55,743 nt of DNA from Patescibacteria group bacterium (GTDB lineage Bacteria > Patescibacteriota > Minisyncoccia > Phycocordibacterales > UBA9973), in assembly GCA_040384365.1 (NCBI GenBank), contig JAZKJK010000017.1, positions 1-55,743 of the forward strand. Direction: 5' to 3'. The notes below the pieces were generated by a model. That model was not told the DNA's origin and did not search any database. It was given only the letters and a program-made list of their open reading frames with translations. Numbering within the stretch: position 1 is the first letter of the stretch; every line of letters starts with the position of its first letter. Both the position numbers and the translations under genes were made by a program. Of the stretch, positions 29,604-32,920 are shown in pieces.

Positions 29604-30083
29604 ATGAAAATAAAAATCCCAAGTTCTTGGGTTAAGTTTCGTAATATTGAAAAGTTACGAGCAATGTTGGAGGGATTTGCAAGAGGACAATTCCTGATGG
29701 AAACACCAGAGGGATTTGTTTTTCGAGGAGAGATAGAGCGATGCTGGGTCGGGGATGATAGTGTTTTTGTTTCCTTTACCTGGCTATGTGAGCGTCGGTT
29801 TGTTTTTGTCTTTGATGGAGCTTGGGAATTAAGAAAATTAAAACCAAAGTGGTTTCCACTTGAATCTCTAAAAGGACCTCCCTTTTTAGAGTTAAAGCCG
29901 GGAAAGTATTACTATCAAGCAGATGAAGACAGAGTAAAAATAGAAGAAGGAAAAGGTGCCATATGTCACTTTTTCAGAAAAGGAGACTATACTAACCTAG
30001 TAAAATGTGAAGATGAGTTTATCCCTTTTGGCGAACTCCACAAATTGGAGTTTTGTAAAGCGATATCACTATTGAAAATATAA
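29604..30083 (+). CDS. hypothetical protein, 159 aa, immediately upstream of the DGR
   Basis: ORF only. No motif recognised. Confidence 0.5.
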   Translation: MKIKIPSSWVKFRNIEKLRAMLEGFARGQFLMETPEGFVFRGEIERCWVGDDSVFVSFTWLCERRFVFVFDGAWELRKLKPKWFPLESLKGPPFLELKPGKYYYQADEDRVKIEEGKGAICHFFRKGDYTNLVKCEDEFIPFGELHKLEFCKAISLLKI

Positions 30084-30206: not shown

Positions 30207-30334
30207 ATAAAGATATATTGCTCTTTAAAAACGACTGTTCGTCATAGCAGAAAGTGGCTTGATTGATAGGCCATTCTCCGCTGTGGCGAAGAGTCCAGCA
30301 AAAAAACAACAAACAAAGAAAGGATGATAACGGC

Positions 30335-31015
30335 ATGAAACCGATTACATCAGGTCAGCAAGAACAGTGCGTCACTGTCATCAAAGACGCGGCCCGTAAA
30401 GCGGGTGAAGCAGCAATCTCCGAACTCTCAGCGAGTGGAGTCATCAATAGCGAAAACTTCCAACGCGTGCTTGGATGGGGAGACCAACTGGTCCCAGTAT
30501 TCCAAGCCTTCGTGAAGGAGAAAATCGCGGAACTGGCGGAAAATATCGCCGGTTGTCTCAAACTCATCTCGGGGGCAGAAGTTCTCACCCTTGAGCCGAC
30601 GGATGGCAAGGAGACGATTGCGGAAGCGAGCGCTCTGTTCAACGGCTGGATCGACGGCGACTTCAAGGAATACGGTTGCGATGTGGAAAGCAAGCCGACG
30701 GTCGCGCAAAAGGTCGTTGTTCATGAGATGATCAAGAACGGCGACTTCAGCCGAATCTTCGGCGGGCTCTCGGACACCTTGGATGCCCTGTGCCTCACCC
30801 AGCCACAGATCATCCAGTTCGTGAAGAAGCATCGCAAATGGCTTCGCACGGATGGCTATGCCACGTTCTTCCTGTTCAAGGTTGGCGACGAGTTCTTCGT
30901 TGCGCGCGTGTGTGTGCTCTCTGATGGCGTCCTCTTTGCCTTCGTCGACCGCTTCTCGCGCGGCAATGTCTGGTATGCCGAGGATCGGCGTCGTGTCGTA
31001 TCCCCGCAACAGTAA
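30335..31015 (+). CDS. DGR variable (target) protein, 226 aa, with the VR in its last 38 codons
   Basis: ATG 30335 behind AAAGGA. The C-terminus ...FFVARVCVLSDGVLFAFVDRFSRGNVWYAEDRRRVVSPQQ matches the TR except at TR adenines. The track ORF begins at an upstream TTG (30263). Confidence 0.85.
   Translation: MKPITSGQQEQCVTVIKDAARKAGEAAISELSASGVINSENFQRVLGWGDQLVPVFQAFVKEKIAELAENIAGCLKLISGAEVLTLEPTDGKETIAEASALFNGWIDGDFKEYGCDVESKPTVAQKVVVHEMIKNGDFSRIFGGLSDTLDALCLTQPQIIQFVKKHRKWLRTDGYATFFLFKVGDEFFVARVCVLSDGVLFAFVDRFSRGNVWYAEDRRRVVSPQQ
30891..31004 (+). repeat. DGR variable repeat (VR)
   Basis: 114 bp aligned without gaps to 31383..31496. There are 20 mismatches, all at positions where the TR has A. 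Confidence 0.9.
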
Positions 31016-31058
31016 CTTTGTTGCTGTTTGCAAAAAATCAAACCGTTCTAAACATGGG

Positions 31059-31082
31059 AAAACCGTGTGGCGAACGGTTTTT
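31059..31082 (+). terminator. rho-independent terminator after the target gene
   Basis: AAAACCGT-GTGGCGA-ACGGTTTT followed by T. The upstream copy AAACCGTTC (31040..31048) can pair alternatively with GAACGGTTT. Confidence 0.7.
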
Positions 31083-31382
31083 CTATTTATACACTTTGAA
31101 ACTTTTATACTTTGACCCTTAAATTTTTATTTTTGCTATACTGAATTTGTAATCAGGTAATGCTTGTGGCTACGGCTTCACGCCATGATTATTTAAAAAT
31201 GTATTTGAGAATTTTGCTGGGAGATTAATCCTTGTGAAAGAGTGGATTCCTTTTTAATAAAATAAAAAACATAAAAGTTGGTGCGATGGGCTGGTGGGCT
31301 TTTAAGCCTAAAATAAAATACAGCACAATCCCTAGCATTAAATTGCGTTTGGATTGGCAGTGACATAGATGGCTCATCGTAC

Positions 31383-31496
31383 AATTCTTCGTTGCGAACG
31401 TGAATGTGAACTCTGATGGCAACCTCAATGCCAACGTCAACCGCTTCTCGAACGACAATGTCTGGAATGCCGAGAATCGGCATCGTGTCGTATCCC
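31383..31496 (+). repeat. DGR template repeat (TR)
   Basis: Non-coding copy of the VR with 11 AAY codons in the VR-equivalent frame. Same orientation as the target gene and the RT. Confidence 0.9.
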
Positions 31497-31526
31497 GAAA
31501 CTCACTGTTTCTCCTTCGCACTAGAT

Positions 31527-31793
31527 TTATTTAGGCGGAGGAGTTTTCTTTTCTAAGCCTTTTTTCCATCCGCCTAGCATTCTGCCAATTTCTTGCAGAT
31601 GCTCGGAGAGGGAAGAATATTTTTCATTTGAGATGCATTTGTTTTCCCAAGCTATTTGCAGGAAGAATTTTATGCCATCAAGCTTGGAAATTGCTATCAC
31701 CAGACGGGGTATCTTGGTCTCCGGCGGAAGATATATCGAAATAAAAATATTTTCTAAAAGACCCAGAAAATAATCTTCAATCTTTCCACCCAA
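31527..31793 (-). CDS. avd: Avd-like four-helix-bundle protein (accessory variability determinant family), coordinates from the first canonical start
   Basis: ...KLDGIKFFLQIAWENKCISNEKYSSLSEHLQEIGRMLGGWKKGL is typical of the CPR four-helix-bundle/23S-IVS protein family. The frame stays open upstream to 31910 and encodes the expected first helix (LLKAKTCYSLWFKIYNDFPKAHRYTLG), but without ATG, GTG or TTG. Confidence 0.7.
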   Translation of the reverse strand: MGGKIEDYFLGLLENIFISIYLPPETKIPRLVIAISKLDGIKFFLQIAWENKCISNEKYSSLSEHLQEIGRMLGGWKKGLEKKTPPPK

Positions 31794-31883
31794 AGTATAA
31801 CGATGCGCCTTTGGAAAATCATTATAAATTTTAAACCACAGAGAATAGCAGGTCTTTGCTTTCAGAAGCGCCGTCGGCGCTGA

Positions 31884-31894
31884 GGGGGGGGGGG
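31884..31894. repeat. G11 homopolymer between and overlapping the divergent avd and RT 5' ends
   Basis: Counted directly: 11 consecutive G, 6 nt upstream of the RT ATG. On the minus strand it reads as Pro codons in the open avd frame. Confidence 0.9.
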
Positions 31895-31900
31895 TAAAAT

Positions 31901-32920
31901 ATGAAACAATTTATTCATAGCTACGATACTATCATAACTATAGAAAAACTGCTCAAAGCTTGGCAGGAATTTTTACGCGACAAGAAAAATAGAAAAGATG
32001 TCATTTTATTTCAAGCCAAATTGATGGACAATATTCTTGAGCTTTTTAATGATTTAAAAGACAAAACTTATCAACATGGTGGCTATACGGAATTCAATAT
32101 ATCCGATCCAAAGCCTCGGCAAATACACAAAGCCACAGTCAGAGACAGGTTGCTCCATCACTTAATCTATCAAGAACTATATCCATATTTTGACTCCAAA
32201 TTCATCCATGACTCATATTCTTGCAGAGTGAACAAAGGGACGCATAAGGCGATAGACAGATTCAGATACTTTTTCCGAAAAGTTTCAAAAAATAACACAA
32301 AGACCTGCTGGATTTTAAAATGCGACATTAGAAAATTCTTTGCGAATATTGACCATGTAATCTTGAAAAACACACTGTCAAGGACGGTCCTTGACAGTGA
32401 TACGCTTTGGTTACTTTCACAAGTAATAGACAGCTTTCAGACCAATTTACATATTTACGCCATGGCTGATATATGTAAAAAGGGGTTACCGCTTGGGAAT
32501 TTAACGTCCCAACTCTTGGTAAATGTGTATATGAATGAATTCGACCAGTTTATGAAAAGAGAATTGAAAGTAAAACACTATATCCGTTACGCAGATGATT
32601 TTGTGATATTGAGCGACGATAAAGAATATCTTAAAAATTTACTTCCTAAAGTTTCAGACTTCTTAGCTGAAAAATTGAAATTGTGTTTGCATCCGGACAA
32701 GGTTTTTATTAAAACATTGGCTTCCGGAATAGATTTTTTGGGTTGGTTGCATTTTCCGGAGCATAGAGTCCTGCGGACGAGTACTAAAAAGAGAATGTTG
32801 CATGCTGTAAAAAATAATCCAAAACCAGCAACCATACAGTCTTATTTAGGGATGCTCTCGCATGGGAATAGCTATAAATTATCTAGAAAAGTTTATCAGA
32901 AATTATATGGTAAAGTGTAG
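31901..32920 (+). CDS. DGR reverse transcriptase
   Basis: 339 aa. PKPRQIHKATVRDRLLHH, SYSCRVNKGTHKA, DIRKFFANIDH, the DGR-typical GLPLGNLTSQLLVNVYMNEFD, and the catalytic YADDF. Confidence 0.9.
   Translation: MKQFIHSYDTIITIEKLLKAWQEFLRDKKNRKDVILFQAKLMDNILELFNDLKDKTYQHGGYTEFNISDPKPRQIHKATVRDRLLHHLIYQELYPYFDSKFIHDSYSCRVNKGTHKAIDRFRYFFRKVSKNNTKTCWILKCDIRKFFANIDHVILKNTLSRTVLDSDTLWLLSQVIDSFQTNLHIYAMADICKKGLPLGNLTSQLLVNVYMNEFDQFMKRELKVKHYIRYADDFVILSDDKEYLKNLLPKVSDFLAEKLKLCLHPDKVFIKTLASGIDFLGWLHFPEHRVLRTSTKKRMLHAVKNNPKPATIQSYLGMLSHGNSYKLSRKVYQKLYGKV

Follow-up and report, generated by a model that had tools for sequence, protein, structure and literature searches.

The 55,743-nt stretch of DNA analysed here (the window; contig JAZKJK010000017.1 of a Patescibacteria group bacterium, 40.7% GC) contains a complete diversity-generating retroelement (DGR), whose accessory gene avd carries a homopolymer of eleven nucleotides in its 5' coding end, C11 on the coding strand and G11 on the opposite strand (31884..31894). 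The interpretation which we favour, and consider probable, is that this tract is a slipped-strand switch through which Avd, and with it the activity of the DGR, undergoes phase variation. A first-pass annotation of the window had listed this among several options. It is favoured by the conserved position and the hypervariable length of the tract in related loci, by dinucleotide repeats which substitute for it in some of them, by otherwise identical assemblies differing in tract length and by a conserved ATG upstream. Avd is required for cDNA synthesis in the DGRs that have been studied, so that phase variation of Avd would gate the whole element.

According to this interpretation, translation of full-length Avd would start upstream of the run, here at an ATG at position 31918 of the reverse strand, and the length of the run would set the frame. 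Runs of 9, 12 or 15 nt would yield an Avd of 129-132 aa (ON), while at 10, 11 or 13 nt only a peptide of 18 codons or similar would be made, without any Avd (OFF). Slippage during replication would alter the run length reversibly and at high frequency. A minority of cells would thereby diversify the DGR target, the majority carrying a frozen variable repeat (VR). The window genome, as assembled, would be OFF and one insertion away from ON.

The body of avd, i.e. the frame from just past the tract to the stop codon, is located on the reverse strand (31527..31883, SAPTALLKAK...TPPPK*). Its identity is supported by a match to Pfam bAvd (PF22296) with 52.9 bits at a cut-off of 40 (E-value 6e-14), which makes it a member of this family. 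Residues 17-117 moreover align to profile positions 6-104 of NCBIfam DivGenRetAVD (NF033474); this score (65.4 bits, 4.7e-18) is below the equivalog cut-off of 80, hence avd does not qualify as an NCBI equivalog. The first canonical start in the avd frame is a TTG at 31793, which gives a product of 88 aa. The frame itself is open up to 31910, where a TAA (31913..31911) precedes it, and reads IVSYFTPPPSAPTALLKAKTCYSLWFKIYNDFPKAHRYTLG... (IVSYFTPPPSAPTALLKAK...). The only ATG upstream (31918..31916) opens a leader open reading frame (ORF) of 18 codons on the same strand which is out of frame with avd (31862..31918, MNKLFHILPPPPQRRRRF*). A tract of G12 or G9 would put this ATG into the avd frame, giving 130 or 129 aa, respectively.

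The ATG at 31918 is the antisense of codon His6 (CAT) of the DGR reverse transcriptase (RT), which starts at 31901 on the forward strand, and it lies 24 nt upstream of the tract. G11 is thus placed between an ATG and the body of the gene, as is typical for contingency loci, and has a length at which slippage is expected (G/C runs of about 7 nt or more). It is the sole G or C homopolymer of at least 7 nt in the window. On the avd strand it is read as Pro codons; on the forward strand it is rich in G, resembles a Shine-Dalgarno sequence and lies 6 nt upstream of the ATG of the RT. As a TAA (31895..31897) closes the RT frame shortly before this ATG, changes in tract length leave the RT frame unaffected. 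A GC hairpin (AGCGCC-GTC-GGCGCT, 31867..31881) adjoins the tract within the avd codons SAPTAL and folds on both strands. The first-pass annotation had already identified avd, its TTG start and open frame, the out-of-frame ATG that joins avd at G12 or G9, the tract and the hairpin, and all of these stand after inspection of the profile matches, the ORF list and the translations.

A homologue search with the 127-aa open frame returned 443 homologues. From genome and metagenome collections we compiled 160 loci, 129 of them non-redundant, which belong to Nomurabacteria, Paceibacterota and other Patescibacteria, and aligned the DNA upstream of a fixed avd anchor. The closest Avd homologues are labelled Candidatus Nomurabacteria (Patescibacteria, or candidate phyla radiation, CPR), indicating that the source genome is related to these. 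At exactly the same codons a simple repeat is present in 109 of the 129 loci (~85%). It is poly-C in 106 (5-15 nt, mode 9), (CA)13-15 in two and (GA)8 in one, and 20 loci have no repeat. Because (CA)n and (GA)n replace poly-C, the conserved feature is repetitiveness and not polyproline. Across 655 kb of related loci, G/C runs of at least 7 nt are found 129 times at the junction and 8 times anywhere else; the tract at the avd junction is far beyond chance. In a quick IQ-TREE phylogeny of Avd the tract-less loci form one group (Shimodaira-Hasegawa-like approximate likelihood-ratio support 90), poly-C occurs everywhere else, down to ~62% identity, and the loci with dinucleotide repeats are nested within the poly-C loci. 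The tract is also seen in four-colour Illumina assemblies of groundwater sampled in 2011-2015, which pre-date the two-colour chemistry, and is therefore not a poly-G read-end artefact. The comparison of orthologous loci, recommended by the first-pass annotation as a check, hence reveals a tract that is conserved in position, hypervariable in length and located downstream of a conserved ATG. In three loci without a 5' tract (L071, L076 and L078), the 3' end of avd has a run of C7-C8, ~325 nt past the anchor and within a ...KTPP... tail. Judged from the sequence, it could offer a second site for a homopolymer to alter the end of the protein.

Several observations place the tract inside the avd ORF. 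No start codon after the tract is conserved among the aligned relatives. The closest homologues share the N-terminus xPPP[AS]APSALLKAK and many of them begin with MNKLFHVS.PPP..., which corresponds to the reading from ATG 31918; relatives with an in-frame tract likewise start MNKLFHVS.PPPAAPSALL. In tract-less relatives an ordinary ATG (MATYYSVPTV...) stands at the site of the tract. Moreover, in 33 relatives the RT start and the tract are separated by at least 17 nt, which leaves a spacer not shaped by RT coding. All 33 have an ATG that is open to the tract, 6-22 nt upstream of it (one has a further ATG 34 nt upstream), compared with a fraction of only 0.22 among shuffled spacers. The presumption that relatives carry Met where the window has ACG was wrong: they have Ser or Thr at this site (AP[ST]AL), and their Met is found upstream of the tract position. 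In some relatives (L113, L006, L024, L025, L030 and L138) the start codon of the RT belongs to a palindromic CATG, whereby avd gains a second ATG, 12 nt upstream of the tract. This ATG and the one 28-31 nt upstream are in different frames, hence two of the three tract-length classes would give Avd in these loci, with different leader peptides.

The same data bear on the idea that Avd is initiated at a non-canonical codon, either ATT (31910..31908) or CTG (31866..31864), in which case tract length would be irrelevant. The frame is indeed open from 31910 with ATT directly after the TAA, genetic code table 11 allows both codons, and the NCBI Prokaryotic Genome Annotation Pipeline (PGAP) gave at least one relative (P0001) an apparent ATA start. 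However, no near-cognate codon is found at a fixed place. L130 and L131, which share the register of the window, have ACT for ATT, and the post-tract codons of relatives (CTT TTA, CTT CTA or CTC GTA) include no start codon. No Shine-Dalgarno sequence precedes ATT or CTG, and every relative with a free spacer retains a genuine ATG upstream of the tract. We consider initiation of this kind very improbable. Termination-reinitiation at the CTGA overlap (31866..31863) was evaluated as well and rejected, as the overlap is not conserved in relatives.

Tract length changes far faster than any other site. Identical 450-nt flanks define 22 clusters of loci, and 7 of the 22 vary in tract length, whereby many clusters represent the same assembly filed twice. 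A single C in the tract is the sole difference between L088 and L007 (5,372 nt), between L010 and L098 (4,951 nt) and between L038 and L152 (1,670 nt). L099 and L021 as well as L100 and L126 differ in the tract plus 1-2 single-nucleotide polymorphisms. In every one of these pairs the change in the tract moves avd into or out of the frame of its ATG. The length polymorphism is thus a property of the relatives; a near-identical strain of the window genome was not found. Another pair, L149 and L031, is otherwise identical and differs in a ~160-nt block within the RT region or close to it, ~1,578 nt upstream of the avd anchor; a real indel or a discrepancy in assembly could account for it.

Regarding the frames, an ATG is in frame in 38 of the 109 repeat loci, and in 7 the only in-frame starts are GTG or TTG. 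The remaining 64 are out of frame, 63 of them with an ATG in some other frame. Assembled loci are thus most commonly out of frame, which fits a switch that is mostly OFF. Decay of avd, also raised by the first-pass annotation, as part of a dying DGR is hardly credible as the reason. As assembled, helix 1 is without a canonical start, as one might expect from a pseudogene. However, avd has no internal stop, keeps every invariant residue of a 39-sequence alignment and is 77-89% identical to its closest homologues (top 30 hits). Furthermore, the RT, the template repeat (TR) and the VR are intact with clean adenine-only mismatches, and the same out-of-frame state is found in dozens of otherwise conserved loci. 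According to the anchor criterion and the alignment, essentially all loci, in frame or not, retain an intact and conserved avd body, hence the out-of-frame state is not decay.

The homopolymer may also have been miscounted at the window locus only, the true majority length being 12 or 9 and avd being in frame. Long G runs are error-prone on Illumina, and sequencing depth is ~6-7x. In the best-matching run among the Logan contigs (97% of sampled words, ~6-7x depth), one contig covers 30430..31893 without any difference and the next starts at 31885. This independent assembly was thus unable to bridge the tract; both contigs stop inside it with 10 G each, which fits mixed lengths or poor reads through the run. 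We regard the count of G11 as uncertain by about one, and the population could be OFF, ON or mixed. Against a miscount, out-of-frame lengths are the majority in relatives, including C8-C10 from well-covered assemblies, so that an out-of-frame count is not suspicious per se. On balance a miscount is possible yet doubtful, and a consensus error at the window locus, if real, leaves the conclusion for the family unchanged.

The hairpin next to the tract is conserved, too. Nearly all poly-C loci have a GC stem of 5-6 bp that starts 0-3 nt past the tract, and this stem is for the most part missing in relatives without a tract. Compensatory changes maintain it: at stem pair 12-20, 37 sequences have GC and 21 have AU, at pair 11-21, 53 have CG and 4 have UA, and the stem contains 28 cells with changes on both sides compared to 9.8 +/- 2.6 in shuffles (0 of 500 shuffles as high). 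Since one partner is a synonymous third position while the other changes Ala to Val, the hairpin structure and not the protein is under selection. On the avd strand, the stem cells include 9 G.U and 13 A.C when the innermost pair is excluded. The innermost pair itself is C.A in 37 of 69 sequences, corresponding to U.G on the RT strand, and may simply be part of the loop. The hairpin could promote ribosomal slippage on the CCC codons or influence DNA slippage, or could be part of the TR-to-RT transcript. No Rfam family matches the hairpin/tract region. A function as intrinsic terminator was rejected, as in most relatives no T-run follows the hairpin and a terminator scan found none.

As the main rival reading, poly-C and hairpin together might represent a constitutive slippage cassette, either transcriptional or by -1/+1 ribosomal frameshifting on CCC, releasing a little Avd from any tract length. 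The tract would then be an attenuator that keeps Avd scarce instead of a heritable switch, although recoding could also act alongside DNA switching. C CCC CCC is a perfect slippery heptamer, nearly all poly-C loci have the covarying hairpin just past the tract while it is for the most part lacking in loci without one, and the frames look random relative to the ATG with no enrichment of ON. L130 and L131, the only lineage with an interrupted tract (CCCCCGCCGCCG), would suit this explanation as well: they are out of frame in the register of the window and have an intact avd. Both are locked in this register, with no canonical or near-cognate in-frame start. On the other side, recoding predicts a fixed direction of the shift, whereas relatives need +1 (37), -1 (21) or none (38). 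Three loci have (CA)n or (GA)n instead of poly-C, without a comparable hairpin; dinucleotide repeats are classical substrates of DNA slippage, and to our knowledge they do not act as recoding sites. The 0-3 nt that separate tract and hairpin fall short of the usual 5-9 nt, and slippage of RNA polymerase is best documented on A/T runs. Taken together, recoding as the whole explanation appears unlikely.

A combination of both is conceivable, which we put forward as a tentative idea with a small chance of being right. Repeat and covarying hairpin would be one device that makes targeted hypermutation tunable and heritable across the DGR clade of Patescibacteria. Tract length would set ON and OFF, and hairpin-assisted slippage on CCC would provide a low basal level of Avd in the OFF state. 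Such a device would resemble a rheostat, a 'mutator of the mutator' under second-order selection, rather than a plain binary switch.

The first-pass annotation had described the tract as shared with the ribosome-binding region of the RT gene. The position of the run would allow this in a subfamily: in about two thirds of the relatives with an identifiable RT start the G-run is found 6-15 nt before the RT ATG. This is different in the 33 relatives with a free spacer, in which the run is 17-62 nt away from the RT ATG. As its position relative to avd remains fixed in these, the conserved partner of the tract is avd and not the RT start. An explanation by which the run is kept as RT ribosome-binding site or for an N-terminal polyproline of Avd, with neutral length variation and out-of-frame alleles as transient defects, is consequently improbable. 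The 6-15 nt of the former group are a good Shine-Dalgarno distance and the motif PPP[AS]AP appears conserved at the protein level. Five G would, however, be enough for a Shine-Dalgarno sequence, yet 7-15 are kept; tract-less relatives manage without a G-rich RT leader, (CA)n and (GA)n do not encode polyproline, and out-of-frame alleles are the majority, contrary to what is expected for transient defects. The tract was also considered as spacer of an RT promoter, which was rejected because there is no consistent -35/-10 arrangement around it.

Phase variation by slippage has to be weighed against some points as well. There is no enrichment of ON alleles: about one third of the loci overall and only 6 of the 33 in the free-spacer subfamily are in frame. 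Unenriched frames would also fit a situation in which the frame matters little, e.g. due to efficient slippage in transcription or translation. A pure DNA-slippage switch leaves the conserved hairpin unexplained. No VR difference was observed between in-frame and out-of-frame members of the identical pairs. The Logan contig matches the VR of the window exactly, with no sign of VR heterogeneity at contig level. Part of the length differences between assemblies could be homopolymer consensus errors, while C8 versus C9 in independently assembled, well-covered contigs is outside the usual error regime. A switch would imply length heterogeneity within a population and reversibility. The break of the Logan contigs in the tract is weak evidence of length heterogeneity because breaks also occur in ordinary sequence: the second one is found 1.4 kb away at 30430-30435, within coding sequence of the target gene, and the ~6-7x data are fragmentary. 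Finally, the sequences themselves show the anatomy of the locus, the conservation of the repeat, its differing length in near-identical strains, the distribution of frames and the past activity of the DGR, from which we infer that slippage would occur at a useful rate in the host, that the OFF frames would give no functional Avd and that the RT would depend on Avd.

The DGR around avd has the layout target-VR, TR, (avd), RT, as derived from the ORF list and a repeat search. The target gene (30263..31015, forward strand) is a 250-aa ORF from a TTG, with an ATG 72 nt in and no Pfam or NCBIfam match. The VR (30893..31004, forward strand), a 112-nt direct repeat of the TR with 83% identity, is located at its C-terminus and ends 11 nt before the stop codon, as expected for a DGR target. 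In comparison to the TR (31385..31496, forward strand), 19 of 27 adenines are substituted in the VR, and every one of the 19 mismatches is at a TR adenine (eight A>G, eight A>T and three A>C). Adenine-only mismatches are the signature of past DGR activity, and the DGR is intact. DGR-type RTs are recognised by the motif [I/L]GxxxSQ together with a YxDD box. The RT gene (31901..32920, forward strand, 339 aa), which adjoins the TR, matches Pfam RVT_1 (6.2e-26) and shows LGNLTSQ and YADD in its translation, hence it belongs to this type.

A transcript running from TR to RT (31496..31901, forward strand) would necessarily be antisense to the entire avd over ~390 nt. If TR and RT are co-transcribed, avd mRNA and DGR RNA are fully complementary, and avd could be under antisense control. 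A consensus scan, which carries no sign of function, indicated a promoter-like site (CTGCCA N18 TATAGT, 31937..31966, reverse strand) upstream of the avd ATG within the RT coding region. A further promoter-like site upstream of the TR (31234..31263, forward strand) comes from the same kind of scan only. An 18-nt inverted repeat (31040..31080, forward strand) with 78% complementarity and a 5-nt loop is found 36 nt past the VR, in the same place as the GC-rich hairpin that is needed for target recognition in Bordetella phage BPP-1. Immediately upstream of the target gene lies a 159-aa ORF (29604..30083, forward strand) without Pfam match.

The gene order agrees with DGR architecture B3, TR-(avd)-RT, which makes up 90% of the CPR collection of Wu et al. 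2018 (PMC5758913): avd of the window is on the reverse strand between TR and RT. The repeat at the start of avd is undescribed in that study, whose text does not contain 'homopolymer' and uses 'frameshift' once, for VR indels (PMC5758913). The DGR of BPP-1 (mtd-VR, avd, TR, brt) has the same components, the same adenine-specific TR-to-VR pattern and an Avd of the same Pfam family. In contrast to the window, its avd is on the same strand upstream of the TR, with an ordinary start and no repeat. BPP-1 Avd is reportedly required for cDNA synthesis, as is said of work by Handa et al. in 2018 and Alayyoubi et al. in 2013. We know of no stochastic genetic switch that acts on the DGR core genes of BPP-1.

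In being a slippery homopolymer followed by a stable intracoding hairpin, the avd tract resembles the sites in dnaX, in IS3-family transposases and in poly-A rescue in endosymbionts, and as in such frameshift or slippage cassettes the upstream ORF in the window is out of frame with a functional body. Unlike these, the direction of the shift is not conserved for avd, the spacing to the hairpin is very short and dinucleotide repeats can substitute.

The closest resemblance in kind is to the intragenic poly-G/C contingency loci of Campylobacter jejuni, Helicobacter, Neisseria and Haemophilus (PMC8355987, PMC5084427, PMC3315296). Shared traits are a G/C run of at least 7 nt a few codons past the start, flips of the frame by 1-nt changes, length differences among otherwise identical strains and a repeat type that varies between lineages at the same site. 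Different from the pathogen loci, the gated gene is an accessory factor of a targeted hypermutation machine, whereas surface or restriction-modification genes are gated there. Its hosts, groundwater Patescibacteria in which such switching is proposed, live freely or as episymbionts, and the tract overlaps the leader of the divergent RT gene and pairs with a conserved hairpin. Coliphages T2 and T4 have hypermutable repeats as bet-hedging switches (bioRxiv 10.1101/2025.10.21.683753). Like avd, these loci lie outside the classical bacterial pathogens, and unlike avd they have, in the part of the preprint consulted, no connection to a DGR.

We found no description in the literature of repeat-mediated phase variation in a DGR or of Avd. 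For annotation, the tract implies that avd in this clade is routinely truncated, oddly started or missed, and that calls of 'avd-less' or 'broken' DGRs should be re-read. If phase variation of Avd holds true, it would be a simple answer to how DGR mutagenesis is controlled, and to how a useful variant escapes continual scrambling, in the largest environmental DGR clade. Most cells would keep the current variant of the target while a stochastic, heritable and reversible minority diversifies. One mechanism of localized hypermutation, repeat slippage, would thus control another, adenine mutagenesis, and contingency loci would extend from host-adapted pathogens to ultra-small groundwater bacteria.

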